A stretch of DNA of 64,000 nt from an uncultured Clostridia bacterium. GTDB lineage: Bacteria > Bacillota > Clostridia > TANB77 > CAG-508. Made by a program: the position numbers and the translations under genes. The DNA lies in assembly GCA_947630545.1 (NCBI GenBank), contig CANRHX010000003.1:2177-66176 (forward strand), written 5' to 3'. Shown piece after piece: positions 9,679-63,271 of the stretch. Position 1 is the stretch's first letter; each line of letters starts with the position of its first letter. The notes beneath the pieces are model-generated. The model made no database searches. It worked only from the letters and a program-made list of their open reading frames with translations, and was not told where the DNA came from.

Positions 9679-9716
9679 TAAAATACATAAATATATAAAT
9701 TAATGGAGTGATATAA

Positions 9717-10955: not shown

Positions 10956-11001
10956 TAAAGATTATTGATTTTATATTAATCATATAAAAGAAAGGGAAAA
11001 A

Positions 11002-45783: not shown

Positions 45784-45803
45784 TTTTGCCTCCATTCTTT
45801 GTT

Positions 45804-46358
45804 TTAATTAAAAATCTTTTCAAACCATTTTTTAAAGTTTATATTCAATTCATCTAAAGTATAATCACTCTGATTTTTAAAATATTTTATAAGTTCTGCC
45901 ATAACACCGTCCATAAAAAAATATACATCCAATTCTAAATAATCTTTTTCAGAAATGCTATTTTCTAAAGCATAGAGTATTTTTCTACTAGCCATTTTAT
46001 TTAATTTTTCTAAAAAGGTTATTGATTCAGTAGATGACAATAACATTTTATATATTTGTTCATTTTTTTTAAGACAGACTATTATATCATTAAAATAGTT
46101 TATTATATCATCTTTATTATATAAAACATTTTCTTCACTAATTAACAATTCTATAGTTTCTAATTGATAATCATTAGCCACATCATAAATATCATCATAA
46201 TGAGTATAAAAAGTACCTCTAGTGATATCTGCTCTTTTTACTAATTCAGTAACTGTTATTTTATTTAAAGATTTTTTTTCATTCATAAGTTCTGCAAAAG
46301 TTCTTTTAATAAGTTCTTGAGTTTTTCTTGAAGAGGAATTTAATCCTTGTACTTTCAT
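45804..46358 (-). CDS. TetR/AcrR-family transcriptional regulator
   Basis: 'ELIKRTFAELMNEKKSLNKITVTELVKRADITRGTFYTHYDDIYDV' TetR HTH. Divergent from the MMPL gene. The longer ORF to 46469 lacks an RBS. Confidence 0.85.
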   Translation of the reverse strand: MKVQGLNSSSRKTQELIKRTFAELMNEKKSLNKITVTELVKRADITRGTFYTHYDDIYDVANDYQLETIELLISEENVLYNKDDIINYFNDIIVCLKKNEQIYKMLLSSTESITFLEKLNKMASRKILYALENSISEKDYLELDVYFFMDGVMAELIKYFKNQSDYTLDELNINFKKWFEKIFN

Positions 46359-46475
46359 ATAATCAATCCTTTCGTAAACATTAGCAATTATATCACATTT
46401 TAAACCTAAATTAAAGTATAAAGTAAAAGATTTTATACAATTTAAGCCAATGTGTCTAAATTTATACAAAATTAG

Positions 46476-46494
46476 TAAATCTATTCTAGATTTA
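46476..46494. promoter_or_regulatory. Candidate TetR operator (8-bp inverted repeat)
   Basis: TAAATCTA-ttc-TAGATTTA in the TetR/MMPL divergent intergenic region. Confidence 0.3.
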
Positions 46495-46552
46495 TCAATA
46501 ATAATATAGTATGATTTTATTTAGTATTTTTCTATAGGGGGAGTGAATTATA

Positions 46553-49500: not shown

Positions 49501-50407
49501 GGAAATATTTACTATTTTAAGTAAATTGGATGATAATTTGGATAAAGATAAGATTGATTTAGTATATATTTATTATGGTAGCAATAATGAATTTAATGAT
49601 GAGTGGACTTTGACAGTAGAAAAGTTTATTGATTATTTAAATGATAAAATTTTGAAAGATAATAGATTTGATGATTTTATAGAAGCGGATATGAGAAACC
49701 AAATTACAGATGCAAAAGAAAAAATATCAGATTCAAAAGAATTATTGATAGGCGACAAGTATTCAAGAGTTGTTTTAAATACAGATTTTGATCCTGAATC
49801 AGAAGAGACTTTTTCGTTTATAAAAAATTTAAAAAATATATTTGGAAATAAGGCTTATATTGCTGGAAATTCTGTAATGGCTTATGAAATGAGTAACACA
49901 TTTAATGATGAATTAAATTTTATTACAATCCTTACTATGGTATCAATTTTCGTTGTTGTAGCAGTAACATTTAAGTCAATAATTATACCAATAATTTTGG
50001 TTCTTACTATACAATGCGCAGTTTATGTGACAATGGGAATATTATCTTTTTCAGGCGAAGGTGTTTACTTTATTGCTCTTCTAATTGTTCAAAGTATATT
50101 AATGGGAGCAACAATAGATTATGCAATTTTATATACATCATATTATATTGAACATAGGCGAACAATGAATATGAAAGAAGCTATAATTAATTCATATAAT
50201 AAATCTATTCATACAATATCAACTTCTGCATCTATTTTGATTATTGTTACATTAATTGTAGGACATTTTTCTTCAGCAATAACTTCACAAATATGTAAGA
50301 CTATTTCAGCTGGAACAATCTGTTCAACAATGTTAATATTGTTGTTATTGCCTTCTGTAATTGCAATTTGTGATAAATTAATTGTAAAACATAAGAAAAA
50401 AAGTTAG
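46553..50407 (+). CDS. MMPL/RND-superfamily transporter with greatly expanded repeat-containing extracytoplasmic region
   Basis: 1284 aa. Two MMPL-type TM bundles (about aa 150-350 and about aa 1110-1280; e.g. 'ILQMALSMDYSIMLINRYRQE', 'IVQSILMGATIDYAILYTSYY') flank a roughly 650-aa repeat region. Confidence 0.85.
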   Translation: MKKLTDFIVEHRNLMLIIFIIFSVIAVIASNKVNINYDIAKYLPDSSETRIGLDIMEDEFEETQSSMNLMFNGLAEDEKDQIFNELKDIHGISSVDYDKTQDYNKDDYTLYIIHVDDVEDSEIAKEVYETIDEKYKDYETFTSGEISQRNNPVLPMWIIVLAVGCAFIILVIMSESYIEPFLFLFAILMAVLLNKGTNIFFDNVSNITSSITAILQMALSMDYSIMLINRYRQEKEHEKDKVKAMKGALYNAFKSISSSSITTIVGLMALVFMSFKIGQNLGLVLAKGVLFSLICIFFVLPALILMFDKLIAKTKKKCPHMKLDGLGKFSYKIRYISIPIFILVFLFSFIEKGNLNILYTENQSDTVSKVFTENNQIAVVYKNEDEEEISKKLTDLENIDKVKEVLGYGNTINQELKYNELNAKLKDLGADVSIEDYLLQILYYNYYNQDENNNITFDEFISFIKNDVYNNEKMMEKVDNEIKDNVDKLENFTNEKLYNKKITSAQISDILGIDKQKVDDILIYYNSKNNNLKISLSDFINFMNNDVLTNEKYSKKIDNTSKANLKRLSKFTNKSTIQKKMTSKEMANLFGIDKNTVDQLYNYYMSLNKIETKLTLHQFSEFVLNDVLKNSEYADLFDNQTINNINMLNTYSDKSIITKNMNSKELSKLFNIEENSVKQLLFLKYSNLDYGKKITISEFINSIVNIKENTNYLADIDISSIEKLKEFLDDDSITANKTEYSEQQMANLLNMEFSQVSQLYALIDMTQNNTSSWNSTPYDFVELIIKNKDREDIKNSIDTNSLNNLQLAFSIMNNTLNNKSYSYKELSNFIGIDSNDSKNIYTLYKIKNTTLKLTPQNFVNFILNHKIDSTLSGALDKSTIKDLNLVQSVMNGVLNNKKYTSAEMSNLLGINGEDLNLLYGLYNTKHVNTNPKISLKDFVNFLETDVMKNAEYSSNFTDKSKTKIDTINGIIKASINKTKYSKEEIFTILSKLDDNLDKDKIDLVYIYYGSNNEFNDEWTLTVEKFIDYLNDKILKDNRFDDFIEADMRNQITDAKEKISDSKELLIGDKYSRVVLNTDFDPESEETFSFIKNLKNIFGNKAYIAGNSVMAYEMSNTFNDELNFITILTMVSIFVVVAVTFKSIIIPIILVLTIQCAVYVTMGILSFSGEGVYFIALLIVQSILMGATIDYAILYTSYYIEHRRTMNMKEAIINSYNKSIHTISTSASILIIVTLIVGHFSSAITSQICKTISAGTICSTMLILLLLPSVIAICDKLIVKHKKKS
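47795..49750 (+). repeat. About 8 tandem degenerate protein repeats of about 80 aa inside the MMPL gene
   Basis: Recurring pattern '[YM][TS]..[EQ][MI][SA].L[LF][GN]I[DE]...[VL]..LY..Y......K[IL][ST]L..F[IV]NF[IL]..DV..N..Y.......K..[IL]..L'. Example pair: 'MTSKEMANLFGIDKNTVDQLYNYY' and 'YTSAEMSNLLGINGEDLNLLYGLY'. Confidence 0.75.
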
Positions 50408-50499
50408 AATTTTTGGTTTACTAATTTTAAAAGTAATGTTATACTAAAAATATTTATATGATATATATAAATATAATATTAAAATTAGGAGATAAATAC

Positions 50500-51018
50500 A
50501 TGGAAATAAGAGATTTATATGATTCTGAAAGAAATCTTACAGGTGAAACAATATTAAAAGGAGAGGAAATTCCTGAAGGAAGATATATATTAGTAGTTTC
50601 AGTATTTATACAGAATTCTGAGGGAAAGTTTTTAATTCAAAAAAGAAGTGAGATAAAAAATGGAAAGTTTGCAACAACAGGAGGTCATGCAAAAACTGGA
50701 GAAAATAGCATTCAAGCAATATTAGCTGAGGTTGAAGAAGAGATTGGTTTAAAATTAAATCCAAATGATTTACAATTATATTCTTCTAATAAGTTTGAAG
50801 AATATAGAGTTTTTGGCGATGATTACTATGTTAAAATGGATATAGAAGATATAAGCAATTTAAAATTGCAAAAAGAAGAAGTAGATTCTGTTCAATGGCT
50901 TTCTAAAGATGAAATTTTAGACTTAATGAAGCAAGATAAATTCTTTAAAAATCATTATGAAGAATTTGAAATATTAATTAATTGGTTAAATAAAAATAAA
51001 TTTTCAAATAAATGTTGA
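50500..51018 (+). CDS. NUDIX hydrolase
   Basis: Nudix box 'GGHAKTGENSIQAILAEVEEEIGL'; GGAG RBS before ATG 50500. Confidence 0.8.
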   Translation: MEIRDLYDSERNLTGETILKGEEIPEGRYILVVSVFIQNSEGKFLIQKRSEIKNGKFATTGGHAKTGENSIQAILAEVEEEIGLKLNPNDLQLYSSNKFEEYRVFGDDYYVKMDIEDISNLKLQKEEVDSVQWLSKDEILDLMKQDKFFKNHYEEFEILINWLNKNKFSNKC

Positions 51019-51080
51019 ATGTAATTTTTTGTTATAGTATAATTCATATATAAAAATTTGGAATTATAGGAGGAGTAAAA

Positions 51081-51875
51081 ATGGAAATAAAAAGATTACA
51101 AAATGAACACAGAAAAATTGTAACTACTGTAGGAAGTTTTAGTATATTAGAATGTTTAAGAGATGAAAGTATATCTCCAAGTAATGCTACACAAAATTAT
51201 TTTATGGAAAAAATGGGGGTTAGACGTCGTCAAGTAATAGCTACTCTAAAAGGAGATAAAACTATTATTACACAAGCAGGAGCTATGCAATGGACTTTAG
51301 GAAATGTTTCTGCTACAACAGGAATAAAGGGAGCAGGAGACTTCCTTGGAAAAATGATTAAAGGTGCCGTTACTAAAGAATCAGCAGTAAAACCAGAATA
51401 TACTGGTAAAGGTTATTTAGTACTAGAGCCTACTTATAAATATTTAATATTGCAAGATTTAGCTGAATGGGGAAATGGTGGAATGACAATAGAAGATGGA
51501 ATGTTTTTAGCTTGTGAAGGAACTGTTAAAACAAATGTTGTAGCGAGATCAAATATTTCATCTACTGTAGCTGGAGGAGAAGGTTTATTTAACCTTAGTT
51601 TATCAGGAACTGGTATAGCATGTCTAGAAAGTAATGTACCATTAGAAGAACTAGTAGAAATAGAATTAAATAATGAAGAATTAAAAATAGATGGACATTT
51701 AGCAGTTTGCTGGTCTTCTGGATTAGAATTTACAGTAGAACGTTCATCAAAAAGTTTACTTGGTTCTGCAGTTAGTGGAGAAGGTTTAGTAAACGTATAT
51801 AGAGGAGTTGGAAAAGTTTTAATGAGTCCATATTCTCCTACAGGATCTTTATATTCAGCTACTCATAATATGTAA
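51081..51875 (+). CDS. AIM24/DUF124-family protein
   Basis: 'QAGAMQWTLGNV...', 'GKGYLVLEP', 'GGEGLFNLSLSGTGIACLES', 'GEGLVNVYRGVGKVLMSP' match the AIM24 (TRAP-like beta-sandwich) family as I recall it. Confidence 0.7.
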   Translation: MEIKRLQNEHRKIVTTVGSFSILECLRDESISPSNATQNYFMEKMGVRRRQVIATLKGDKTIITQAGAMQWTLGNVSATTGIKGAGDFLGKMIKGAVTKESAVKPEYTGKGYLVLEPTYKYLILQDLAEWGNGGMTIEDGMFLACEGTVKTNVVARSNISSTVAGGEGLFNLSLSGTGIACLESNVPLEELVEIELNNEELKIDGHLAVCWSSGLEFTVERSSKSLLGSAVSGEGLVNVYRGVGKVLMSPYSPTGSLYSATHNM

Positions 51876-51974
51876 GGTGAAAAGCTTGTAACTACTAAAA
51901 TAATGTATTAGTAGGTACAGGCTAAGTAAGCTGTACCTACGATAGTTTAAAAATATATACTTAAAGACATATAC

Positions 51975-52020
51975 AAGACTATTTGTAGGATAATAAAAAT
52001 TCTATAAGTAGTCTTTTTTA
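51975..52020 (+). terminator. Rho-independent terminator (second of two hairpins after the AIM24 gene)
   Basis: AAGACTATTTGTAG (51975-51988) pairs with CTATAAGTAGTCTT (52002-52015), two G-U pairs, then TTTT. A separate 10-bp hairpin lies at 51911-51940. Confidence 0.6.
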
Positions 52021-52258
52021 TATGTCTTTTTTGTTTTTAAATATACTTCATAATCTATTTTTATTCAAAGGGACAAATAAAATTCGAATTTTAAGTAAAA
52101 AAGTAAAGAAAGGTAAATGTAATACCTCGAGAATTTAAGGTGGTATTTGCAACTGAGAAAAATAATTTAGAAATGAAAAATTATCTATTTCTTCTATGCA
52201 AAGAACATGGAAATTGATAAAAGAAATAGTAAGATTAGATTTTCGAGATGATTGAGAA

Positions 52259-52287
52259 TTGACATAGCGAAAAGTGAATGATATAAT
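52259..52287 (+). promoter_or_regulatory. Consensus extended -10 sigma-A promoter for the radical-SAM gene
   Basis: TTGACA 52259-52264, 17-bp spacer, TGaTATAAT with TATAAT at 52282-52287; AGGAGG RBS at 52311-52316. Confidence 0.65.
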
Positions 52288-52322
52288 TTGAATACAAAAT
52301 AACTTGTATAGGAGGGGTCGCA

Positions 52323-53291
52323 ATGGCATTTATCGACTTAAGCAAAATCAAATATGTTACTTTGTATACGGGAGACAATGGCTCTGCTAGTTGTACTTGC
52401 AATTGTCCTTGTTGCTCGCAGAAAGGAAGAAATCGGAAATATCAAGGAACTATGAATCAGGCTTTAGATATGTTTGAAAAATTACCTAATATGGAACAGC
52501 TTTACATATTTGGCAATCCAGATGTGACTGTAGATACTGATTTTTGCCATAACGTTATAGCAGAAGCAGTAAACAGGAACATTAATGTAAGTTTTTCCAC
52601 TTCTGGAGTGGGGGGAGAACATACTCTTAAGCGGTTGCTAAACAACATTTCTACTAATAACGTTGATTACATTTCTTTTAGCTTTGATGGAACAACTGAA
52701 GAGGAGATGTCTTTTTCAAAAGGAATTGCATATCCTATGGAATATGCTTTAAAAGGCATAGAATGGGCTATTGATAACGGTTATACTGTAAAAATACAGC
52801 CTACCATTTGGACATACAATTATACAAAGGTAGAAACGATTATTGACTATTTCGTTAGCAAAGGCGTAACATGGTTTACTTTTCACATTGGTAGTTTGGA
52901 ATCAGAGCTAGATTTGCCTTCTCACAAGCATCTTTCACCAGAGCAAATTAATCTAGTTCATAGTCAGATTGAACACGCAGTTCAAAAACACAAAAACATT
53001 AAGGTTAGATGTCCTATTATTTATTTGCAGTGTGGCCAAAACGAATCTCACAAATGGTATTGTATGCATCCGGAAAGAATCCAAGAATTACTAATAACAT
53101 TTACAGAAAAAGGAATAAGAGCTACGCACGTACCTATGGCAAGCATTTATAGAAATGAATTGAGCTTTGACTTAGGTACATCTATTGATATTCCTGCTAT
53201 TTCAGAATGCAAAACTTGTCCATTTAGTAATGAATTAGCTGGTCGAAATGATACTTGTTGCAGATATGTTTCAAAATACTGGAATTATTAA
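52323..53291 (+). CDS. Radical SAM-like enzyme, unknown subfamily
   Basis: 'CTCNCPCC' contains a CX3CX2C arrangement near the N-terminus. 'LYIFGNPDVT' sits where the GGE-type SAM motif is expected. C-terminal Cys-rich region ('CPIIYLQCG', 'CKTCPF...CC'). G+C about 40% versus about 20-27% in the flanks (hand counts on sample lines). Confidence 0.6.
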   Translation: MAFIDLSKIKYVTLYTGDNGSASCTCNCPCCSQKGRNRKYQGTMNQALDMFEKLPNMEQLYIFGNPDVTVDTDFCHNVIAEAVNRNINVSFSTSGVGGEHTLKRLLNNISTNNVDYISFSFDGTTEEEMSFSKGIAYPMEYALKGIEWAIDNGYTVKIQPTIWTYNYTKVETIIDYFVSKGVTWFTFHIGSLESELDLPSHKHLSPEQINLVHSQIEHAVQKHKNIKVRCPIIYLQCGQNESHKWYCMHPERIQELLITFTEKGIRATHVPMASIYRNELSFDLGTSIDIPAISECKTCPFSNELAGRNDTCCRYVSKYWNY

Positions 53292-53331
53292 ACTCTTCAA
53301 ACGCATTCCACAATTAAGGATGACTATTATG

Positions 53332-53360
53332 TATAAGGGGGCTCTCAAAGTTCCCTTATA
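53332..53360 (+). terminator. Hairpin terminator after the radical-SAM gene
   Basis: TATAAGGG (53332-53339) pairs with CCCTTATA (53353-53360), followed by a T-rich run. Confidence 0.55.
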
Positions 53361-53387
53361 TTTATATAAAAATTAGGAGAATTTAGA

Positions 53388-54191
53388 ATGTTAAATCAAA
53401 TTAAAATAATATTTATGGATTTAGATGGTACATTATTAAATAACAAACACGAAATATCAAATAGTTCCATAGAAATGATAAAAAAACTTGTAAGGAAGGG
53501 AATATATGTAATATTTTGTTCTGGAAGATCAACAAGTGACATAATTGAAAAAAGCAAAATAGCCTATGCAAGTTCTATAGTTGTTGCAAATAATGGTTCT
53601 ATTGTATTTGACTATGAAAAAAATTTTAAAATATATGAAAGTGCAATAGATTTAAATATCATAAAAGATATTTGGACATTTTCATTAAACAATCATATAT
53701 ACATAACATTGAATTCTGCATTTAAAAGATATAAAACCAAAGGATCAAGTAAACAGGCATTTATAATAGATACACCAGAAGCATTGGAGGACACAGTTGC
53801 TCAAATAGTTGTAGAAAGCCCATATGCTAAAAATATTATGCAATTAAAAGATTTTATTGAAAAAAAATATCAAAATATAGAAATTAAAAATATCTGGGAA
53901 ATTCCTAGTGTAGATTCCCAAGTTCCAATTTTTGAAGCAGATATATCCAATAAATTTAATAATAAAGGAAATTCTGTAAAAAAACTTTTAGAATACTTAC
54001 ACATTGAAAAAAAACAGGCAATGAGTTTTGGAGACCAAATTAATGATTTAGAAATGTTTGAAGCCTGTGGTACAAATATTGCTATGTGTAATGGCAATAA
54101 TATGTTAAAGCAAAAGGCAAATTTTGTAACAAAATATTCAAATAATCAAGATGGAATTGCAAAGTTTATTGAAAAATTAACGAATCATTGA
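53388..54191 (+). CDS. Cof-type HAD-IIB phosphatase
   Basis: 'IIFMDLDGTLLNNKHEIS' (motif I), 'FCSGRS', 'SFGDQINDLEMF' (motif IV). Confidence 0.85.
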   Translation: MLNQIKIIFMDLDGTLLNNKHEISNSSIEMIKKLVRKGIYVIFCSGRSTSDIIEKSKIAYASSIVVANNGSIVFDYEKNFKIYESAIDLNIIKDIWTFSLNNHIYITLNSAFKRYKTKGSSKQAFIIDTPEALEDTVAQIVVESPYAKNIMQLKDFIEKKYQNIEIKNIWEIPSVDSQVPIFEADISNKFNNKGNSVKKLLEYLHIEKKQAMSFGDQINDLEMFEACGTNIAMCNGNNMLKQKANFVTKYSNNQDGIAKFIEKLTNH

Positions 54192-54320
54192 TATTTGTTA
54201 GAAATAAAAATTATAAGGGTACACTAAAAAATTAAAAAAATTAGTAAATGTATAGACAAATATAAAATAATATTGTAGAATAATTATTATAGAAAATGAC
54301 TAATGAAGGAGAGATGTATA

Positions 54321-55094
54321 ATGGATAATAATAAAAAAAGAATATCTTTAACTGTATATATAATTACATTAATTTTTATGCTGGTTATTATAGCTATATT
54401 AGGCTATATTATTGTGAAAAAAAATAATAGTAGCAATAATAATGTAAACAATATAACTACTGGAGTAAATACAGAAATAGAAAGTAATATAACTACTGCA
54501 GTTAATACGGAAAATGTAAATACTATAAATACTTCAGCTAATACAGAAAATGTAAATAATGAAAGCTCTAATGTAGGTGAAGTAGATAATATAGAAGAAT
54601 TACAAAAAATTTTAGAAAAGTATCTCTATATATATAGTTTAAAGGATACTGGAGCAACAATTTTAACAAGAGATGAAGGTAGATTTCCTTATGTATTAGA
54701 TTTCTATAAAACATATGATGAATTAGAAAAAGACTTAAAAAAAAGTAAAGAAAAAATAATAGATGAAGATGGATATGAATTTGAATTATATAAAACTAGT
54801 ATCCAATATTCAGAATATAAAGAAAAATTACTAAATTATATGTCAGAAAATTTATTTGAAGAAAATTTTACAAGGTGTCAAAAAGATATCAATGGTATAT
54901 TGTATGTCACTAAATCCGGAGGAGATGGAAGAGGCTATAAAATTATAAAGATGACTAAAAATAGTGATAATTCTTATGATGTAGCGTGTAAGTATCAAGA
55001 AGGAGAAAATCCATATACTGATGTTAGCTTAAATGTTACTTTTGGTAAAAATAATAAAGGAATTGTTATTGTAGAAAGTTGTGTTTTTGAGTAA
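54321..55094 (+). CDS. Membrane-anchored hypothetical protein
   Basis: N-terminal TM (ISLTVYIITLIFMLVIIAILGYIIV), Asn/Thr-rich linker with 'NTENVN' repeats, C-terminal globular domain; GGAG RBS before ATG 54321. Confidence 0.5.
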   Translation: MDNNKKRISLTVYIITLIFMLVIIAILGYIIVKKNNSSNNNVNNITTGVNTEIESNITTAVNTENVNTINTSANTENVNNESSNVGEVDNIEELQKILEKYLYIYSLKDTGATILTRDEGRFPYVLDFYKTYDELEKDLKKSKEKIIDEDGYEFELYKTSIQYSEYKEKLLNYMSENLFEENFTRCQKDINGILYVTKSGGDGRGYKIIKMTKNSDNSYDVACKYQEGENPYTDVSLNVTFGKNNKGIVIVESCVFE

Positions 55095-55176
55095 AACTTT
55101 ATATTTAAATTATAAATTATATCAAGGAAGTAGATTTGTTTGAATATAAGGAATATAAAAAATGAGGAGGATTATT

Positions 55177-55851
55177 ATGGAAAAAAAATTAATAATATTT
55201 GATGTAGATGGAACAGTATGGGATAGTGAAAGAGATGTATTTGCCTCATTTAATCACACACTAAAAACAATGGCAGGATTTGAAATAACAAAGGAACAAT
55301 TTCAAACATTAGCAGGAATGCCTTTAGAAACTATGTTTGAAAAGATGTTACCAGATGATAAAAAACATTTATCAATAGAATGTGCAAAAGCATACAGAAA
55401 ATATTATATAGATGAAGGACATTTTATTGACGGAACAGTACTTTTTAAAGGCGTAAAAGAAACGATTGATAAATTTAAAAATGATGGATTTCATATGGCA
55501 GTTGCATCAAGTAAACCAAAAAGGATCCTAGACAAAATGGTATCAGTATTTAATTTAGAAGGATTTGACTATGTTTTAGGAACAGGGGAAAGCAATTTTA
55601 AACATAAACCAGATCCTGAAATAGTAAATTATATAATGAGTCAATTAAATATATCAAAAGAAGACGCTGTAATTGTTGGTGATAGTAAAAGTGATATACT
55701 TACAGGTAAAAATGCAGGTATAGATACAATAGCTGTTACATATGGATACGATAAACCAGAAAATCTAATAAATGCAAATCCAACTTTTGTAATAGATAAC
55801 TTTTCTAAGTTAGAAGATATTATAGAAATAAAAAATATGGATAAAGTTTAG
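55177..55851 (+). CDS. HAD-IA hydrolase (phosphoglycolate phosphatase/PpaX-like)
   Basis: 'LIIFDVDGTVWDS', 'VASSKP', 'VGDSKSDILTGKNAG'; GAGGAGG RBS before ATG 55177. Confidence 0.85.
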   Translation: MEKKLIIFDVDGTVWDSERDVFASFNHTLKTMAGFEITKEQFQTLAGMPLETMFEKMLPDDKKHLSIECAKAYRKYYIDEGHFIDGTVLFKGVKETIDKFKNDGFHMAVASSKPKRILDKMVSVFNLEGFDYVLGTGESNFKHKPDPEIVNYIMSQLNISKEDAVIVGDSKSDILTGKNAGIDTIAVTYGYDKPENLINANPTFVIDNFSKLEDIIEIKNMDKV

Positions 55852-55890
55852 GATTTTAAATATGAAAAATAAAATATCTATTATAATTAT

Positions 55891-55917
55891 GCAGATAATT
55901 AGTTGCTAATTATCTGC
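55891..55917. terminator. Perfect 12-bp hairpin, bidirectional terminator overlapping the tdk stop
   Basis: GCAGATAATTAG-ttg-CTAATTATCTGC followed by TTTT on the + strand. Confidence 0.7.
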
Positions 55918-56448
55918 TTTTAAGCTTAATTTGTTATAACAATTTCTACAAACTGGTATATATTCCGAATCTCCTATATAAACATCACTATTTTTTTGAC
56001 CTTTAAAAAATGAAAAAATTGCACATTCATTTTTGCAAATTTCACAAATAGAAGTCATCATTTGAACATTATCAGATATACACATTAAATCGCCCATTTT
56101 GCCAAAAGGCTTTTTTTCAGCAGTTAAATTAAGACCAGAAATATAGAATTTTTTACCGTTTGTAGCCATTTTTTCAATTGTATCAACTTCGCCATTTAAA
56201 AATTGAAATTCATCAATAAAATAAATATCAGCATTGTAATTTTGTAATTCTTCAATAGAATTTATATTAATTGCTTCAACCTTATTTCCAGAACGAGTTT
56301 GAACAATATTATTTCCATATCTATTATCAATACTAGGTTTAAAAACTTTAATATCTTTTCCTGTTATTATTTGTCTATCTAGTTCATTAAGCATTTTCTG
56401 TGTTTTTCCACATTTCATTGGACCAGTAAAAACATTAATATCTCCCAT
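55906..56448 (-). CDS. tdk: Thymidine kinase (TK1 type)
   Basis: 'VFTGPMKCGKTQ' P-loop, 'YFIDEFQF', C-terminal zinc ribbon 'CEICKNE...PVCRNCY'. Confidence 0.9.
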   Translation of the reverse strand: MGDINVFTGPMKCGKTQKMLNELDRQIITGKDIKVFKPSIDNRYGNNIVQTRSGNKVEAININSIEELQNYNADIYFIDEFQFLNGEVDTIEKMATNGKKFYISGLNLTAEKKPFGKMGDLMCISDNVQMMTSICEICKNECAIFSFFKGQKNSDVYIGDSEYIPVCRNCYNKLSLKADN

Positions 56449-56621: not shown

Positions 56622-56650
56622 TTGACAAAAAATATAATAGTATGTATAAT
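56622..56650 (+). promoter_or_regulatory. Consensus sigma-A promoter of the his-like/PurC-like operon
   Basis: TTGACA 56622-56627, 17-bp spacer, TATAAT 56645-56650; AGGAGG RBS about 5 nt before ATG 56703. Confidence 0.6.
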
Positions 56651-56702: not shown

Positions 56703-57602
56703 ATGAAATTAAAAACAGGAAAATTAAATAATAGAGAAAGAAAATTTATATCAATACGAAAGAGTAAATTTGATGAATATGTAAAAAAATTAGATTTTGT
56801 AGAAAAATACAAAATTACACAGTATTATTTTCAAAATTACAAATATAGAAAATTTGAATCAGATGAAATTAAATTTACAAAAAGCAAAAAAGAAGGAGAA
56901 TTTACAACTGTTGAAGAAATATCTGAAAAAGAATTTTTAGAAAATTATAGTTATAATGTAGCAATAGTAAAGGAAAGAAACAAATTTAAAGATGGATTAT
57001 ATATTGTTGAAATAGATAAGTTTATACTACCTATACAAATTACTATGATAGAAGTTTCAAGTGATACTGAAGATTTAAAAAAGTATAAGTGCCCAGAAAC
57101 ATTTATTGAGGTCACTGATAATCCAATATATAAAAATATCAATATAATAAAAGGCAGTATAAAAAAATCTAACATAATAGTAGAAGGAACAGATGGAGTT
57201 GGAAAAACTACAACTATAATAAAGTTATTAGAAGATGGAATTGTATGTCAAGATAGATGTGAAGAAGTAATATCTAAGAATATGGTATTTAATGTAAATG
57301 ATAAAAAAAGAGCAAAAGAGATATATGAAAAATATTTCTCTATGAATACGGATATCTTAATTATTTTTCTAATAAATCTTGATAAAAAAGAATTAGAAAG
57401 TAGAATTTATCAAAGAGAAAGAATTTCAGAGTTTGATTTAAAAGCATATGAATATGGGCTACTTTATAAACAAACTTATGAGTATATGATAAAAAAATAT
57501 AATACTAAAGGTAGATTAATTTTGATAGATTGCAGTGGATTAAATATAGAAGAACAATATGAAAAAGTTAAAAATGTCATAATTGGAAAGGAGATGGATT
57601 AA
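56703..57602 (+). CDS. CYTH (triphosphate tunnel metalloenzyme) domain fused to a P-loop thymidylate/deoxynucleoside-kinase-like domain
   Basis: N-terminal half: 'NRERKFISI...ITQYYF...IVEIDKFILPIQITMIEVSS...FIEVTDNPIYKNINI' follows the CYTH pattern (EXEXK...QGYL...vD.f....l.l.EvE...EVT.d..Y.N). C-terminal half: 'IIVEGTDGVGKTT' P-loop from about nt 57183. Confidence 0.7.
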   Translation: MKLKTGKLNNRERKFISIRKSKFDEYVKKLDFVEKYKITQYYFQNYKYRKFESDEIKFTKSKKEGEFTTVEEISEKEFLENYSYNVAIVKERNKFKDGLYIVEIDKFILPIQITMIEVSSDTEDLKKYKCPETFIEVTDNPIYKNINIIKGSIKKSNIIVEGTDGVGKTTTIIKLLEDGIVCQDRCEEVISKNMVFNVNDKKRAKEIYEKYFSMNTDILIIFLINLDKKELESRIYQRERISEFDLKAYEYGLLYKQTYEYMIKKYNTKGRLILIDCSGLNIEEQYEKVKNVIIGKEMD

Positions 57603-58289
57603 ATGAAAATAGCTTTAATAACAGGTTGTAATAGAGGACTTGGAGAAGGAATAAGAAACATCTTATTAGAACAAGGATATAAAGTAATAGGTTTGAATCG
57701 AACTATTTCAAACCAAATAATAGAAAATTATACAGAAATAGAGTGTGATGTTTCAAAATATGAAAATATTCAAAAGATAAAAAACAAAGTAGATAAAAAA
57801 ATTGATTTATTGGTAATTAATGCAGGAATCAGAAGATTTGAAAAAATAGAAAATATGAAAGTGGATGACTGGAAAGATTCAGTAAATACAAATTTGAATG
57901 GTGCATTTTATGTATTAAATACATTTATAGAAAATGTAAAAAATGCTAAAGGTGATGTAGTAATAGTTGGTTCACATTCAGAAAAATACACCTTTGAAGA
58001 AGGAGGAGCATATTGTTCTACAAAACTAGCATTAAGAGGATTGGCAGAATGTTTAAGAGAAGAATTAAGATATGAAGATGTAAGGGTTTCTTATTTATCA
58101 CTTGGAAGTATAAAAAATAGGAATCACGGAATTTATGAAGACTGGAAATTAATGCCAGAGGAAGTTGGAAGGGCAATTGTAAATATTATAGATTTACCTA
58201 AAAAAATTTATATTCCATATTTAGACATAAGACCACTGAAACCACTAAAAGATCAAAAGAAAGGAATTGAGAGATTACAATATGTTTAA
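57603..58289 (+). CDS. Classical short-chain dehydrogenase/reductase (candidate CofA/PenB-type ketoreductase)
   Basis: 'ALITGCNRGLGEG' (TGxxxGxG), 'INAG', 'GSHS...YCSTK' catalytic S-Y-K. The start abuts the upstream stop (TAAATG). Confidence 0.85.
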   Translation: MKIALITGCNRGLGEGIRNILLEQGYKVIGLNRTISNQIIENYTEIECDVSKYENIQKIKNKVDKKIDLLVINAGIRRFEKIENMKVDDWKDSVNTNLNGAFYVLNTFIENVKNAKGDVVIVGSHSEKYTFEEGGAYCSTKLALRGLAECLREELRYEDVRVSYLSLGSIKNRNHGIYEDWKLMPEEVGRAIVNIIDLPKKIYIPYLDIRPLKPLKDQKKGIERLQYV

Positions 58290-59286
58290 TATAAAATGTA
58301 ATTATCAAATAACTATAGATAAAGAAAATGAGTTTATTGCAAAAATTTCACCACGAGAAAAAGTTTGCGTAAAAACTATAAATGCGTATGGAGATAGGTT
58401 TAAAAATATAAGCGAATTGATAGAACTAATAAATAACAAAAATGGTAAAACCCACCATCACCCATTAACAGGACCTATTTATATAGAAAATGCAAAACCA
58501 GGAGATGTACTAAAAGTTCATATATACAAAATAGATGTAGAAGAGATGGCACAAAGTATGTCTAAAACAGCAGGAATAGACCCAATAGAAAGCTCAGAAA
58601 TATCAGAAAGAGTACCTGCTATAGCAAAAAGATTAAAAAATGAATTAAAATATTTAAATAACATAAAGCTAAACTATAAACCTATGATAGGTATAATAGC
58701 AACAGCACCTAATGGTGAAAAAATAAAGACAGGTCATGCTGGACTTAGGAATGGTGGAAACCTAGACTTACCATTTATTACAGAAAATACAGATATATAT
58801 CTTCCTGTTGATATAGAAGGAGCTGGCTTATATTTAGGAGATATACATAGCTTGCAATCTTATGGAGAATTAAGTGGAATAGCAATGGAAGCATCTAGCA
58901 AAATTATACTTGATGTAGAAGTGATAAAAACTAATGAGCATTTAGATAATATTTTGGTAATTGGAAAAGAACCATTTTCGGAAAAAGAAGGAATTGGAAT
59001 TGTCGGAATAGGAGAAAAGATGAAAATGGAAGCTTCAGTATATGATGCATTTCAAGGAACTTATAATTTATTAAAACAAATTCTACCTAATTTGCCTAAA
59101 AATATTATTAAATCACTAATATCACTAATAGGAAATTCATTTAATGGTCAGGCATTTTCAAAAACATCAGAGTCAACGAGTATAATAGTTATTACAAAAG
59201 AAAATATTGAAAGAATAACACAAAATAAATATGAAGATTTATCAAAAGAAATTGAAAAAGTTTTATTTAAGAAAATTGAAGTATAA
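58267..59286 (+). CDS. Acetamidase/formamidase (FmdA/AmdA)-family protein
   Basis: 'HHHPLTGPIYIENAKPGDVLKVHIYKIDV' and 'GGNLDLPFITENTDIYLPV...GAGLYLGDIHSLQSYGE' match this family. The start (TTG 58267 or ATG 58282) overlaps the SDR stop. Confidence 0.75.
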   Translation: MRDYNMFNIKCNYQITIDKENEFIAKISPREKVCVKTINAYGDRFKNISELIELINNKNGKTHHHPLTGPIYIENAKPGDVLKVHIYKIDVEEMAQSMSKTAGIDPIESSEISERVPAIAKRLKNELKYLNNIKLNYKPMIGIIATAPNGEKIKTGHAGLRNGGNLDLPFITENTDIYLPVDIEGAGLYLGDIHSLQSYGELSGIAMEASSKIILDVEVIKTNEHLDNILVIGKEPFSEKEGIGIVGIGEKMKMEASVYDAFQGTYNLLKQILPNLPKNIIKSLISLIGNSFNGQAFSKTSESTSIIVITKENIERITQNKYEDLSKEIEKVLFKKIEV

Positions 59287-59300
59287 AAAGGAGGAAAAAT

Positions 59301-60488
59301 ATGAGTGAAAAACCTATAATTAAGTTAAGTGCTGGAAAAGGAAAATTATTACCTGTATTACAAGAATATTTGAAAAGTATAGGTCTTCCAGAAATAGAAG
59401 AGTCAAGAAAATTAGTTCATAAAATTGAAACACCTAATTACATTTTAGAAATTACTCTTTTAAGATGGGAAGATATAAAAAGATATAGTGATAAGTTCGA
59501 TATGATTATTTATGGAAGTGACCAATGGTTAGAAAGTGAAGACAAATCTATGATTTCTTTGAAATATTTCGAACAAAAAAATTGTAGAATAAGTTTACTA
59601 GTAAAAAAAGAACTAGCATATAAGCCATTTAGTTATTTTCAAAAAAGAAAAGTAGCAACACTCTATGAAAATTTAGCAGAAGATTATTTAGGAATAACAG
59701 AGGAAAATATAGTAAAGATTTCAGGTAACGTAGAAGCAGCTATTTCATTAGGGTGGGCCGATAGTATATTTGATGTTGTAGAAACAGGAACAAGTGCAAA
59801 AGAGAATGGACTTATAGAATATAAAACATTTGTAAAATTTGGAGCAATTTTAGCAACGAAAAAGGTAGAAAAAATTGATTTGTTTGAAAAATTAAGTTTA
59901 ATACCAAAACAAGAAAAAGGTAAAATCATAGCATTTGATGGATTAGATGGTTCAGGAAAATCTACACTAGCTAAATATTTGGTGCAAAATCCAATAATGG
60001 ATACAAACTCTAAGGTATTAATAACTCCATATTCAGGCAGAGTAGGAATTGAAGCAAAAAAATTATGGGATGAAGGCAAGTATGTAGAATGGGCTACAGA
60101 GATTGGTAAAAAACATTGGAGAGCGCCTAAATATGTAAATAGTATATACGATAGATCAATACTAACATTTATGACAGATTTAATAAAACAAAAATTTACA
60201 GATGAACAAATTTTAGAAGTAATAAATATATGGAAGCCTCTGCCAGATGTACTATTTTATTGCGACATATCACCAGAAATTGCTTTAGAAAGAACAAACA
60301 AAAGAAATAAAGGACAAGATGATTTTGATGAACTACAATCATTAAAAGAATACTACGTATTGTATAAAAAAGCAGTAGAATTTGTAAAAAAATATAATTT
60401 AACAAAAGTAGTAAAATTAAATACAAATAGACAAATTTCAGAAGTTATAAATATTGTTAAAGAAGATTTAGAAGGGAAAGTGAGGTAA
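59301..60488 (+). CDS. ATP phosphoribosyltransferase (short-form HisG)-like domain fused to a thymidylate-kinase-like domain
   Basis: N-terminal about 200 aa: 'IKLSAGKGKL', 'IIYGSDQWLE', 'KVATLYENLAEDYL', 'ISGNVEAAISLGWADSIFDVVETGTSAKENGL' (HisG signature region). C-terminal: 'IIAFDGLDGSGKST' P-loop and 'PDVLFYCDISPEIALERTNKR' (TMPK-like). Confidence 0.8.
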   Translation: MSEKPIIKLSAGKGKLLPVLQEYLKSIGLPEIEESRKLVHKIETPNYILEITLLRWEDIKRYSDKFDMIIYGSDQWLESEDKSMISLKYFEQKNCRISLLVKKELAYKPFSYFQKRKVATLYENLAEDYLGITEENIVKISGNVEAAISLGWADSIFDVVETGTSAKENGLIEYKTFVKFGAILATKKVEKIDLFEKLSLIPKQEKGKIIAFDGLDGSGKSTLAKYLVQNPIMDTNSKVLITPYSGRVGIEAKKLWDEGKYVEWATEIGKKHWRAPKYVNSIYDRSILTFMTDLIKQKFTDEQILEVINIWKPLPDVLFYCDISPEIALERTNKRNKGQDDFDELQSLKEYYVLYKKAVEFVKKYNLTKVVKLNTNRQISEVINIVKEDLEGKVR

Positions 60489-60490
60489 CT

Positions 60491-61246
60491 ATGTATACAA
60501 TAAAAAATAAAATTCCAGAAATAGAAGGTAAGTCTAAAAAAATATATAAATTAGATGAAAATAATTATTTTATGTGTTTTAAACCACATTTAAGGTCTAT
60601 AACATCTAAAAGAGAAAAAAATATAGAAGGAACAGAACATGAAAGATTACTAGCTAATATGTATTTTATGAACTTACTAGAAAGCAAAGGAATAAAAACA
60701 CAAATAAAAAATAAAAATATTCAAAATATTGATGGACAAGAAGGAATAATGGTAAAAAAAATAAAAACAATTCCTCTAGAATTTATTTGTAGATACTATG
60801 CAGCAGGAAGTATAGTAAGATTATATCCAAGTTTAGTAAAAGAAGGACAAAAATTTAAAAAGCCATTATATAAATTTGACTTAAAACAAGATATTAAAGT
60901 TGCAGGAGTAGATGATCCAACATTAAATGAAAATTATATTGTAGGATTAGAAATTTTAACGCAAGAGGAATTTGAAAAAACAAAAAACATATTAGCAAAA
61001 ATAGGAGAAATAGTAAGAGAAAATTTAGAAAAAGCTAAAATGAATTTAATAGATATGAAAATGGAAATGGGATTTGATGAAAAAGGACAAATAGTAGTAA
61101 TAGATGAAATTTCTCAAGATTGTATAAGAGCTAATGATATTGAAACAGGAAAAAGCTTAACAAAGGATTTATTTAGGCAATTGAAAAATGATGAAGAAGT
61201 TTTAAATGCATATATAGAATTTAATAAAAGGCTAGAAATAAAATAG
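60491..61246 (+). CDS. SAICAR-synthetase (PurC)-family protein, divergent (candidate CofB/PenC-type cyclase)
   Basis: 'EGKSKKIYKLDENNY', 'IPLEFICRYYAAGS', 'LIDMKMEMGFDEKGQIVVIDEISQDCIRANDIETGKSLTKDLFRQ' align along the whole length with PurC as I remember it. The segment where PurC has a D-x-x-T-A-F-[ND]-type motif reads 'FKPHLRSITSKRE'. Confidence 0.75.
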   Translation: MYTIKNKIPEIEGKSKKIYKLDENNYFMCFKPHLRSITSKREKNIEGTEHERLLANMYFMNLLESKGIKTQIKNKNIQNIDGQEGIMVKKIKTIPLEFICRYYAAGSIVRLYPSLVKEGQKFKKPLYKFDLKQDIKVAGVDDPTLNENYIVGLEILTQEEFEKTKNILAKIGEIVRENLEKAKMNLIDMKMEMGFDEKGQIVVIDEISQDCIRANDIETGKSLTKDLFRQLKNDEEVLNAYIEFNKRLEIK

Positions 61247-61263: not shown

Positions 61264-61710
61264 GTGAAGGATTCAGAAAAAAGATATAGAGTATATGAAT
61301 ATATGAGAGATAATAAAGAAATAACAGAAGAAATGTCAAACACTAAAAAAATCATTTTAAAACTTATGAATAACGATAAACAAACTGAAGAATATTGTAA
61401 TAAAAAAATATTAGAAGAAAAGCAAGAAATAGAAGAAGCAATGATAGGAGAGCACTATCATGAGAATATGACTAAAAGAGAAATTCTAATAAATGAAATA
61501 TCGCAATATATTTATTGGCAAACTTTACTGGCAGTAAGTAAAAAAATTAAATATGAAGATTTTGATGGAGAGAATAAAATAGAAGAAATTTTAAAAAAAG
61601 TTGATATTAAAAAAATAGAAGAAACGAAATTAATAACCGTAAATGAAGTAATTCTACATGACTTAGAGCAAATGAAAAATAAAGAATATCTAAAAAAAGT
61701 AATTGTATAG
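61264..61710 (+). CDS. All-alpha NTP pyrophosphohydrolase, HisE (phosphoribosyl-ATP pyrophosphatase)/MazG-like
   Basis: 'KKILEEKQEIEEAM...REILINEISQYIYWQTLLAVSKKIKYEDF' parallels the HisE 'K[VI]GEEA.E......E.[IL].E.ADL.YH..VLL...G[IV]...[VI]' helices. GTG start after GGAGG. Weaker call. Confidence 0.5.
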   Translation: MKDSEKRYRVYEYMRDNKEITEEMSNTKKIILKLMNNDKQTEEYCNKKILEEKQEIEEAMIGEHYHENMTKREILINEISQYIYWQTLLAVSKKIKYEDFDGENKIEEILKKVDIKKIEETKLITVNEVILHDLEQMKNKEYLKKVIV

Positions 61711-61775: not shown

Positions 61776-62735
61776 ATGATAATACCTTCAATTGATATAA
61801 TGAATGGAAAAGTAGTTCAACTAAAACAGGGAAAAGAGAAAGTATATGAAAACGATAATATAGAAGAGGTAGTAGAACAATTTAGAATATTTCCACAAAT
61901 AAATGTTATAGACTTAGATTTAGCAATAAATAATGGAAGTAATAAAGAACTAATTAAAAAACTATGTAGAAAATTAACTTGTAATGTAGGTGGGGGAATT
62001 AGAAGTACTAAGTTAGCAAAAGAATTTTTAAATGCAGGTGCAAATAGTGTAATAATAGGAACTAAAGCCAATAAGGAATTTTTAACAGAATTACCTAGAA
62101 ATAAGATAATAGTAGCATTAGATACTAAAAATGGTAAAATAGCTACACATGGCTGGAGTGAACTAAAAGAAGAAAATATTTATGAAAAAATACACGAATT
62201 AGAGGACTATTGTTATAAATTTTTAATTACGAATATAAATGTAGAAGGACTAAATAAAGGCACAGATCTAAAGTTTTTTGAAACATTAGTAGGAAAAACT
62301 AAAAATGATATTATGGTTGCAGGAGGAATTACAACTATTGAGGAAATAAAATATATTCATAAACTAGGTTTTGATCAAATATTAGGAATGGCTATAACTT
62401 CTGGTAGATTAAATATTATGGAATGTTATATAGAAATAATGGATTTTAAAAAACAAAATGGATTAATACCAACAATAGTACAAGATATATATACAAAAGA
62501 AGTTTTGATGCTTGCTTATTCTTGCAAAGAAAGTTTGAAAAAAACATATGAGATAAGAAAGGCGACTTATTATAGTAGAAGTAGAAAAAAATTATGGACA
62601 AAAGGAGAAAAAAGTGGTAACATACAATATATAGAAAAAATTTATTTAGACTGTGATTCAGATACAATTTTGTTTTTAGTAAGACAGAAAGGAATGGCAT
62701 GTCATAGAAATAAAAGTACATGCTTTACGATATAG
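61776..62735 (+). CDS. HisA-like (ProFAR isomerase TIM barrel) fused to HisI (phosphoribosyl-AMP cyclohydrolase)
   Basis: N-terminal: 'MIIPSIDIMNGKVVQLKQGK', 'NVGGGIRS', 'VIIGT', 'MVAGGITT' (HisA/HisF fold). C-terminal from about nt 62448: 'GLIPTIVQDIYTKEVLMLAYSCKESL...YYSRSRKKLWTKGEKSGNIQYI...DCDSDTILFLVRQKGMACH' (PRA-CH). Confidence 0.85.
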   Translation: MIIPSIDIMNGKVVQLKQGKEKVYENDNIEEVVEQFRIFPQINVIDLDLAINNGSNKELIKKLCRKLTCNVGGGIRSTKLAKEFLNAGANSVIIGTKANKEFLTELPRNKIIVALDTKNGKIATHGWSELKEENIYEKIHELEDYCYKFLITNINVEGLNKGTDLKFFETLVGKTKNDIMVAGGITTIEEIKYIHKLGFDQILGMAITSGRLNIMECYIEIMDFKKQNGLIPTIVQDIYTKEVLMLAYSCKESLKKTYEIRKATYYSRSRKKLWTKGEKSGNIQYIEKIYLDCDSDTILFLVRQKGMACHRNKSTCFTI

Positions 62736-62761: not shown

Positions 62762-63271
62762 ATGCCAGGATATGCAATACATTTAGCAATAGGTAAGGTT
62801 TACCAGCAAAATAATGATATTAATGATATAAAGAGTTTTGAAAGAGGAATTATAACACCAGATTTAGCAAAAGATAAAGCCAAATCTCATTATGGAACAT
62901 ATTCAAGTAATCCAGACTTAAATAGATATTTAAAAGAAAAAAATATTTTAAATGAATTTGATGAAGGATATTTTTTACATCTAGTAACTGATTATTTGTT
63001 TTATAATAAATATTTAAAAAAATGGGATAAGAATATTTATAATGATTATGATAAGCTAAATGATAGAATAATAAAAAGATATAACATTGTACTTCCAAGA
63101 TATTTATTAGAAATAGTAAATATTAAAGATGGAAAATTAGAAATATTAAATGAAGAAGATATATATAGATTTATAGATGTTGTTGGAAAAATAAATATTA
63201 GAGAATTATTAAGAGAAAAGGTAGTAAACTTTCAAAATAAGGTATCAGAAATACAATTTGAAGGAAGATAA
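62762..63271 (+). CDS. Hypothetical protein (possibly metal-dependent hydrolase-like)
   Basis: 169-aa ORF 26 nt after the HisA-HisI gene, with a GGTGAG RBS. 'GYAIHLAIG...SHYG...YFLHLVTDY' is His-rich but I cannot assign a family. Confidence 0.4.
   Translation: MPGYAIHLAIGKVYQQNNDINDIKSFERGIITPDLAKDKAKSHYGTYSSNPDLNRYLKEKNILNEFDEGYFLHLVTDYLFYNKYLKKWDKNIYNDYDKLNDRIIKRYNIVLPRYLLEIVNIKDGKLEILNEEDIYRFIDVVGKINIRELLREKVVNFQNKVSEIQFEGR

Follow-up and report, generated by a model that had tools for sequence, protein, structure and literature searches.

The HisG-kinase gene described here lies at positions 59301 to 60488 of a 64,000-nucleotide window (the whole stretch of DNA that was analyzed) on contig CANRHX010000003.1 of an uncultured Clostridia bacterium. 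It encodes one polypeptide in which a short-form ATP phosphoribosyltransferase, HisG, is followed by a complete thymidylate kinase (TMPK) fold. The fusion is a conserved component of a rare and mobile pathway that is related to the biosynthesis of pentostatin and coformycin, and the operon to which it belongs most likely makes a nucleotide of the coformycin/pentostatin type that blocks adenosine deaminase. The gene and all features of its operon are on the forward strand.

Results

A short-form HisG and a thymidylate kinase fold in one protein

The open reading frame (ORF) of 395 amino acids is uninterrupted, starts with ATG 6 nt downstream of a GGAGG ribosome-binding site read from the sequence (59290–59294), and stops with TAA at 60486–60488. 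The first-pass annotation, made from the letters of the window, had placed a short-form HisG in the N-terminal ~200 residues and a TMPK-like P-loop domain behind it, and both assignments held up. Residues 1–200 (59301–59900) are assigned to HisG by Pfam, NCBIfam, fold match, and retained residues, with Pfam HisG (PF01634) covering residues 63–190 at 82.5 bits against a cut-off of 25.5 and NCBIfam TIGR00070 (hisG) scoring 87.4 bits, above its cut-off of 75.75. This half contains EAAISLGWADSIFDVVETGTSAKENGL at residues 145–171. Its phosphoribosyl pyrophosphate (PRPP)-binding loop, DVVETGTSAKEN, occupies residues 158–169 (59772–59807); D158, G163, A166, and N169 are invariant in the fusion family, and S165 and A166 stand in place of the canonical threonine and leucine.

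Residues 209–395 (59925–60485) form the kinase domain, identified by Pfam (Thymidylate_kin, PF02223; 39.5 bits against a cut-off of 27) and by profile and structure matches. The translation reads FDGLDGSGKST at residues 212–222, of which DGLDGSGKST (residues 213–222, 59937–59966) is the P-loop, with G214, D216, S218, and K220 invariant in both alignments that we made and S221 invariant in the first (A1) and nearly so in the second (A2). A Y-D-R motif (residues 283–285, 60147–60155), also invariant, lies at the position of the TMPK DR(Y/H) acceptor-phosphate motif. The lid region (residues 325–345, 60273–60335) aligns to TMPK lids; R331, R335, D340, and D343 are nearly invariant, and PDVLFYCDISPEIALERTNKR spans residues 315–335. 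As the kinase begins at residue 209, the fusion has no long-form HisG C-terminal regulatory domain, as had been noted from the sequence, and the kinase occupies its place.

An AlphaFold2 model of the whole fusion, built on 45 homologues, has a mean predicted local distance difference test (pLDDT) score of 86.7 and a predicted template-modeling (pTM) score of 0.82, without a low-confidence stretch at the junction. Secondary structure assigned to this model by DSSP places the last HisG helix at residues 189–197 and the first kinase strand at 209–214, leaving a linker of residues 198–208 (59892–59924) that is continuous and conserved in the alignment of fusion homologues. The best Foldseek matches of the whole model in the Protein Data Bank (PDB) are short-form HisG structures, 1z7m and 6fca (target TM 0.69–0.79) and also 5m8h. 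Modeled alone, the C-terminal 194 residues reach a pLDDT of 86.4, and the kinase half alone superposes over its full length on thymidylate kinase 2pbr (TM 0.76/0.75, Foldseek), with further full-length matches to the TMPKs of S. tokodaii, S. aureus, and P. falciparum. The C-terminal half is thus a kinase fold.

Could the junction instead be an artifact? A protein search over 5.8 billion sequences returned 187 homologues of the fusion. The best 120 of these, drawn from independent assemblies in ENA, Logan, NCBI, and JGI, share at least 70% identity with it and carry both the HisG and the Thymidylate_kin Pfam domains in one protein of ~390–400 residues, and six species-level genomes of uncultured gut Clostridia have orthologues collinear across the junction. 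In alignments reaching down to 42% identity, K13-G14, D67, E78, C95, A119-T120, G142, E145, D158, G163, and A166 of the HisG half and G214, D216, S218, K220, and Y283-D284-R285 of the kinase half are invariant. The ratio of nonsynonymous to synonymous substitution rates (dN/dS) against close orthologues is 0.11–0.22 for the HisG half and 0.17–0.33 for the kinase half, indicating that both halves are under purifying selection; for distant pairs dS is saturated, which makes the ratio unreliable. That an error in sequencing or assembly merged two genes, or that the gene is a decaying pseudogene, can be ruled out with near certainty: the same uninterrupted architecture recurs in at least 120 clusters of homologues, in six species, and in a distant viral contig, both halves are under selection, and the model is confident across the linker.

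The HisG half lies outside histidine biosynthesis

Compared column by column with 109 canonical HisG sequences, the HisG half keeps nearly all conserved residues (K13-G14, R55, D58, D67, E78, C95-R96, A119-T120, G142-S-x-E145, D154, D158, G163, and N169). The fusion family substitutes R to K15, G to I69, L to F90, F to Q92, T to S165, and L to A166. This pattern indicates a catalytically intact short-form ATP phosphoribosyltransferase with the same fold, length, and catalytic residues as HisGS, the short-form subunit of the HisGS-HisZ complexes of L. lactis (1z7m) and P. arcticus (5m8h/6fca). Against these complexes, the differences are the substitutions at positions 15, 165, and 166 and a host without HisZ or a histidine pathway.

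The host genome (1.43 Mb, 27% GC) is 99.6% complete. Histidinol dehydrogenase (HisD) was not found in it, no copies of hisG, hisA, or hisI occur outside the operon, and the single gene of the tRNA-synt_His family encodes a 440-residue HisS, not HisZ. The first-pass annotation had seen no HisZ nearby; there is none anywhere in the genome. Because HisD, second copies of the his genes, and HisZ are all missing, the HisG half would neither make histidine nor have its usual activating partner. A role in histidine biosynthesis is therefore rejected, and the gene content of the genome indicates that this HisG works without HisZ.

One possibility is that the kinase-like half is mainly noncatalytic, a nucleotide-sensing or dimerizing module that replaces HisZ as activator or regulator of HisG. 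Short-form HisG is weakly active without HisZ, as established for P. arcticus HisGS, and TMPKs are dimers. The pTM of the model suggests a defined packing of the two domains, and natural HisZ-HisG fusions (P0153 and others) show that regulators do become fused to HisG. However, the P-loop lysine and serine, the DR motif, and the lid arginines are invariant or nearly so, which points to catalysis; in addition, a free-standing orthologue of the fused kinase exists (P0128), as does a HisG-only relative in the same type of gene cassette (L012). We therefore regard this explanation as very unlikely. The first-pass annotation had offered three roles for the kinase (supplying a nucleotide, phosphorylating a pathway intermediate, or standing in for HisZ), and because the catalytic motifs are invariant, a purely regulatory, HisZ-like role is the least likely of them.

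The kinase half is not the housekeeping thymidylate kinase

The fused domain resembles the TMPKs of A. aeolicus (2pbr), S. tokodaii (2plr), and P. falciparum (2wwf/2wwg) in fold (TM ~0.75), P-loop, DR motif, and lid. It differs in scoring 41.3 bits against the dTMP-kinase equivalog TIGR00041, below the cut-off of 83.25, and in its acceptor region: sequence alignment to TMPKs covers only the P-loop and lid, the central ~80 residues cannot be aligned to PDB TMPKs or to the host's own enzyme, and hhalign, run with the kinase family against the host Tmk, produced an alignment in the lid half alone. On contig C1 the host encodes a separate, canonical Tmk, recognizable by its FYAADR and DRY motifs, and the reading of the fused domain as the housekeeping tmk product is accordingly rejected. 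Since the central region is unalignable and a separate Tmk is present, the fused domain would be a further kinase whose acceptor site has been rebuilt, with W264, H272, W273, Y283, and W311 invariant. Judged from sequence, it is a non-housekeeping nucleoside monophosphate (NMP) kinase of TMPK fold with its ATP-side motifs intact, and probably not a thymidylate kinase in function.

In the alignment, the position of the catalytic glutamate of deoxynucleoside kinase (dNK)-type nucleoside kinases is variable, P243 being preceded by T, A, C, S, or E. Because this general-base acidic residue is not conserved, a phosphate acceptor is mildly favored over a hydroxyl.

An operon with the gene content of coformycin-type pathways

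A promoter, TTGACA-17-TATAAT (56622–56650), matches the consensus at 12 of 12 positions, is the sole perfect match between 56300 and 63500, and precedes eight co-oriented genes; the accompanying scan of the same interval found no terminator-like site within the operon. The HisG-kinase fusion is gene 4 (59301–60488). Gene 5 (60491–61246), which begins 2 nt past the stop of the fusion gene, encodes a homologue of phosphoribosylaminoimidazole-succinocarboxamide (SAICAR) synthetase (Pfam 2.7e-38) that falls below the purC equivalog cut-off (116 bits against 189.9), and we regard this PurC-like protein as a candidate CofB/PenC-type cyclase. Gene 2 (57603–58289) encodes a short-chain dehydrogenase/reductase (SDR; Pfam adh_short, 2.2e-34), a candidate CofA/PenB-type ketoreductase that is syntenic in every cassette examined. 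Gene 3 (58267–59286) encodes a hydrolase of the acetamidase/formamidase family (FmdA_AmdA, Pfam 3.1e-25). Gene 6 (61264–61710) is weakly HisE-like, resembling phosphoribosyl-ATP (PR-ATP) diphosphatase (NCBIfam PRK00400, E 4.6e-4), and gene 7 (61776–62735) is a fusion of HisA with HisI, the phosphoribosyl-AMP cyclohydrolase (PRA-CH; Pfam His_biosynth 7.3e-41, PRA-CH 2.4e-31). Searches of the operon with Pfam found no phosphatase, exporter, or HD-domain protein.

A HisG homologue together with a SAICAR synthetase homologue and an SDR reproduces the published logic of PenA/PenC/PenB and CofB/CofA (PMC12648386; PMC13055916), bearing out the PenA-like context suggested at first pass. In gene content, the operon resembles the PenA, AdeC, and PyrS systems for pentostatin, adechlorin, and pyrazomycin, in which a HisG homologue is clustered with a SAICAR synthetase homologue and an SDR outside histidine synthesis. 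Those systems, however, are described without a fused kinase, lack an FmdA-like amidase, rely on the HisE, HisI, and HisA of their hosts, and belong to Actinomycetota rather than 27%-GC gut Clostridia. From this gene content, the HisG half is probably a PenA-like entry enzyme of a coformycin/pentostatin-type pathway, an estimate that applies to the class of pathway.

The remaining operon genes are less readily placed. Gene 1 encodes an N-terminal domain followed by a short P-loop kinase-like domain, found by profile search (57117–57599). Its start is probably the ATG at 56703 (gene at 56703–57602), because the TTG assigned in the ORF listing overlaps the −35 hexamer of the promoter. The gene 1 type (P0131) matches the fused kinase domain with an E value of 5e-29 and 32% identity, making the two paralogues, and lacks the central acceptor-binding insert of ~50 residues, as does a viral version on contig L017; its activity may be that of an ATPase, or its substrate may be held by a different domain. 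Gene 8 (62762–63271), probably the last of the operon, encodes a conserved 169-residue protein with no Pfam, NCBIfam, or PADLOC match. Among six related loci (L001–L006), genes 2–8 are syntenic in L001, L002, L005, and L006, that is, wherever the contig extends far enough, L003 and L004 ending early; gene 6 is also seen in L003, gene 8 is syntenic in the same four loci, and gene 1 occurs in L004–L006 only. The SDR gene appears frameshifted at the same codon (~residue 167) in metagenome-assembled genomes of two species (L002:6312-6996 and L005:6112-6796), each giving two tblastn segments with a 2-nt overlap; the cause could be a homopolymer sequencing error common to both, a pseudogene, or recoding at this site.

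Upstream of the operon, the region 43469–56448 encodes a tyrosine recombinase, a GH30 protein, a TetR-like regulator, a 1284-residue MMPL transporter, AIM24, a NUDIX protein (PADLOC PDC-S07-like, 9.5e-9), a radical S-adenosylmethionine (SAM) protein without a PADLOC match, two haloacid dehalogenase (HAD) phosphatases, and a divergent tdk. In 30 other genomes sampled from the same genus, the flanking tdk was found in three and the NrtR-like gene downstream in one. Because these flanking genes are themselves rare in the genus, no clean island insertion site can be defined, and the whole region around the operon is variable within the genus.

A rare and mobile cassette

The core of SDR, FmdA, HisG-kinase, and PurC-like genes, which keeps its synteny in all relatives examined, forms a rare, mobile cassette. 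When 1.84 billion representative proteins were scanned exhaustively with HMMER, the full fusion appeared in only ~7 clusters at 50% identity. The cassette was absent from all 48 other species of the genus and from 398 sampled genomes of the class, and one of the 32 genomes examined from the order's other families had it. Its parts are also joined in other ways, as a 668-residue HisG-kinase-PurC-like protein (P0122) and as FmdA-HisG-kinase proteins with FmdA at the N terminus (P0123 and P0124, ~730 residues; G072, 739 residues). In L007, L014, and L018–L022 the cassette is minimal, comprising the SDR, FmdA, HisG-kinase, and PurC-like genes without hisE, hisA, or hisI. In L018, a variant with the FmdA-HisG-kinase fusion, a PurA-like (adenylosuccinate synthetase) gene lies directly 3′ of the PurC-like gene (L018:11014-12354).

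The genome G072, of the same order and 99% complete, carries only SDR, FmdA-HisG-kinase, and PurC-like genes (7698–11418 of L023, which is G072:C25:11000-30000), between a dnaK-dnaJ operon and metK and with a PADLOC PDC-S01 candidate ATPase (2.6e-152) directly upstream. Elsewhere the neighbors of the cassette vary, and they often include genes of defense or mobility. In L014 (1–11040) the cassette directly follows a type III-A CRISPR effector locus (Csm2, RAMP) and precedes an Eco57I-type gene, and in L021 (1394–13293) it lies between a defense-type dGTPase (PADLOC, 3.7e-59) and Cas9; in L018 it stands behind two serine recombinases, and in L022 it adjoins a DNA methylase. Three additional ORFs (354, 190, and 239 residues) interleaved with the cassette genes of L014 had no match in a PHROGs search. 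PADLOC added nothing on the flanks of L018, L021, and L022 except a PDC-S10-like Metallophos protein, and none of its models recognized the cassette proteins themselves. The association with defense and mobility genes is anecdotal, if suggestive. The literature search yielded no paper describing a bacterial fusion of HisG and a kinase, nor any on coformycin-type genes within defense islands.

A PADLOC match to VakA (2e-8), which we take to be a viperin-associated kinase, was rejected as a link to viperin, since an unrelated kinase in L021 scores equally, PADLOC does not recognize the radical-SAM gene near the operon, and the match is thus generic; searching the literature for the name returned nothing relevant.

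A distant relative is on the viral contig L017 (IMG/VR UViG_3300027898_000006, 168 kb), which encodes a 588-residue HisG/TMPK-like/PurC-like triple fusion at 9578–11344. Its HisG and TMPK-like parts each exceed the Pfam cut-off, its C-terminal region is collinear with the PurC-like protein of the window, profile comparison with the Clostridia fusion gives 97% probability across the junction, and the two fusions have a DRSILT motif in common. The neighbors of this gene encode SNF2/ResIII helicases, a 1077-residue repeat protein, and a DUF5832 protein.

Discussion

What does the kinase contribute? We tentatively favor a reading in which it supplies the adenine (deoxy)nucleotide substrate of the PenA-like phosphoribosyltransferase to which it is fused. 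The kinase would phosphorylate dAMP or AMP to dADP or ADP beside the phosphoribosyltransferase site, the least certain step, and general enzymes would raise the product to the triphosphate. The HisG half would then open the pathway encoded by the operon, whose other members are the HisE-like and HisA-HisI proteins, the CofB-like PurC homologue, the CofA-like SDR, and the FmdA-like amidase. Since HisE-, HisI-, and HisA-like genes sit in a genome without a histidine pathway, the route would run via PR-ATP, phosphoribosyl-AMP (PR-AMP), and the formimino intermediates ProFAR and PRFAR. Coformycin biosynthesis reportedly takes this route.

TMPK-family enzymes normally act on 2′-deoxy-NMPs, a bias that a dATP-preferring enzyme of the PenA type would fit. 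PenA reportedly joins PRPP with dATP (PMC12648386), and viperin is linked or fused to CMPK2-type kinases of the TMPK superfamily that supply its NTP substrate (bioRxiv 10.1101/2023.09.13.557418). Substrate supply fits the deoxy-NMP bias, the use of dATP by PenA, the choice of the pathway's first enzyme as fusion partner, and the viperin example, and the kinase would dedicate a nucleotide pool to the pathway as CMPK2 does in feeding viperin. In both systems a TMPK-superfamily kinase is linked or fused to an enzyme that leads from a nucleoside triphosphate to an analogue, in neighborhoods of defense type; however, the cassette has no radical-SAM viperin, and the radical-SAM gene near the operon is the one that PADLOC did not recognize.

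Several observations weigh against substrate supply. ATP is abundant, and a dedicated supply makes sense only for a scarce deoxy- or modified nucleotide. The kinase of a fungal counterpart, Cns3, has been assigned to another branch, the 3′-phosphorylation of adenosine for cordycepin (PMC8719641). The relative L012 encodes FmdA, a HisG without a kinase, and a PurC-like protein. The viral kinase of L017 and the gene 1 paralogue lack an acceptor insert of ~44 residues, which is difficult to reconcile with an NMP kinase of the classical type. Finally, the G072 assembly contains no HisD, HisI (PRA-CH), or HisA, its sole weak His_biosynth match being a dihydrouridine synthase; the chemistry after HisG may therefore differ from the textbook, and the kinase or the amidase might fill a step. 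In this single his-less genome, the cassette may be inactive, the missing genes may be unassembled, or the five cassette domains may suffice with non-textbook chemistry after HisG.

It is also possible, although quite unlikely, that the kinase fills a sugar-phosphate step, either substituting for HisE by converting PR-ADP or PR-ATP to PR-AMP through reverse transfer or, in the manner of PhnN, ribose-1,5-bisphosphate to PRPP. PhnN is itself a P-loop enzyme resembling NMP kinases, enzymes that become fused usually catalyze successive steps, and HisGS binds ADP (6fua), which it can reportedly use as a substrate. In addition, hisE is absent from the minimal cassettes and the entire his pathway from G072. 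However, the operon of the window keeps its kinase under selection despite having its own HisE-like gene, the host presumably has a normal PRPP synthetase, and beyond the P-loop the domain shows no sequence similarity to PhnN or to guanylate kinases.

The main rival to substrate supply, possible if doubtful, is that the kinase acts downstream, converting 8-keto-coformycin-5′-phosphate, or coformycin- or deoxycoformycin-5′-phosphate, to the diphosphate. The gene 1 paralogue or general enzymes would then make the triphosphate, and the pathway would end in a nucleotide analogue kept inside the cell instead of a nucleoside that is secreted. Cassettes adjoin CRISPR-Cas genes, a dGTPase, and PDC-S01, and antivirals acting at the nucleotide level are usual in such surroundings, with viperin as precedent (bioRxiv 10.1101/2023.09.13.557418). 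A remodeled acceptor site with many invariant aromatic residues (W264, H272, W273, Y283, and W311) would fit a bulky, non-standard base. The operon has two paralogous kinase domains and neither a phosphatase nor an exporter, and in P0122 and L017 the kinase is fused to the PurC-like cyclase. On the other hand, the known end products, coformycin and pentostatin, are reportedly dephosphorylated nucleosides, two HAD phosphatases are encoded just upstream of the operon, and the kinase is fused to the enzyme that opens the pathway, not to the one that closes it.

The first-pass annotation knew of no described HisG-kinase fusion, a statement that does not stand: a kinase-HisG fusion is already in the literature, with the domains in the opposite order. 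Cns3 of Cordyceps militaris, from the cns1-4 cluster for cordycepin and pentostatin, consists of an N-terminal nucleoside/nucleotide kinase and a C-terminal HisG, of which the HisG half has been tied to pentostatin and the kinase half to the cordycepin branch mentioned above (PMC8719641). Both proteins carry a kinase and a HisG domain on one chain. Cns3, however, is eukaryotic, and its gene is clustered with those for an oxidoreductase, an HD phosphohydrolase, and an ABC transporter, as against FmdA, PurC-like, and HisA-HisI proteins here, where there is an SDR and, unlike in the cns cluster with its Cns2-type partner, no HD-domain protein.

By analogy with Cns3, the HisG half could serve the deaminase inhibitor, or "protector," and the kinase half start a second branch to an adenosine analogue, the "protégé," acting with the FmdA-like hydrolase and the SDR in the order proposed for cordycepin (kinase, phosphohydrolase, reductase). 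Cns3 likewise combines the two domain types, and its cluster also encodes an oxidoreductase and a metal-dependent hydrolase (PMC8719641); all known pentostatin and coformycin clusters co-produce an adenosine analogue (PMC12648386), and the cassette adds exactly two domains, the kinase and FmdA, to the PenA/B/C set. Yet FmdA-family amidases are not phosphohydrolases, the HD-domain protein is missing, the alignment shows no conserved general base for phosphorylation of a hydroxyl, and the domain order is reversed. The kinase role of Cns3 has itself been questioned: cns1 and cns2 alone yield cordycepin in yeast, which leaves the part of Cns3 in cordycepin synthesis unconfirmed (PMC8719641). We consider a dual branch of this kind unlikely.

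Among the matches to canonical HisG, proteins of 510–570 residues with a C-terminal HisG were considered as further Cns3-type fusions and rejected. They are HisZ-HisG fusions, apart from one peptidase_M15-HisG protein. Single-chain HisZ-HisG fusions are common among these matches (P0153, P0162, P0165, P0167, P0226, P0235, P0241, P0248, and P0250), and P0200 is a peptidase_M15/VanY-HisG fusion.

A broader reading, which we consider unlikely, is that the cassette is a portable module of immunity or warfare and not an antibiotic cluster of the classical kind, and that the ring-expanded coformycin/pentostatin-type nucleotide that it makes from adenine (deoxy)nucleotides stays phosphorylated in the cell, the kinase being to HisG what CMPK2 is to viperin. 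On the same reading, a HisG-kinase-PurC core would have been exchanged among gut Clostridia, large viruses, and fungi (Cns3), and the absence of HisI and HisA from G072 would mean that the amidase and kinase carry out an undescribed ring-opening or trimming chemistry.

The fused kinase is the part that has no assigned step in the published pathway, and it recurs with HisG in fungi (Cns3), a large virus, and these bacteria. Knowing which substrate it uses would probably also help to settle the dispute over what the Cns3 kinase does, and it would reveal how a short-form HisG operates in the absence of HisZ. With just three to four genes, the cassette can be tested directly by heterologous expression. 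The defense-island neighbors and the his-less G072 hint at undescribed biology. Pentostatin is a clinical adenosine deaminase inhibitor whose known makers are actinomycetes and Cordyceps. If uncultured gut Clostridia do carry a conserved, mobile pathway to such a compound, these commensals may tune the adenosine or nucleotide metabolism of their neighbors, of phages, or of their host.

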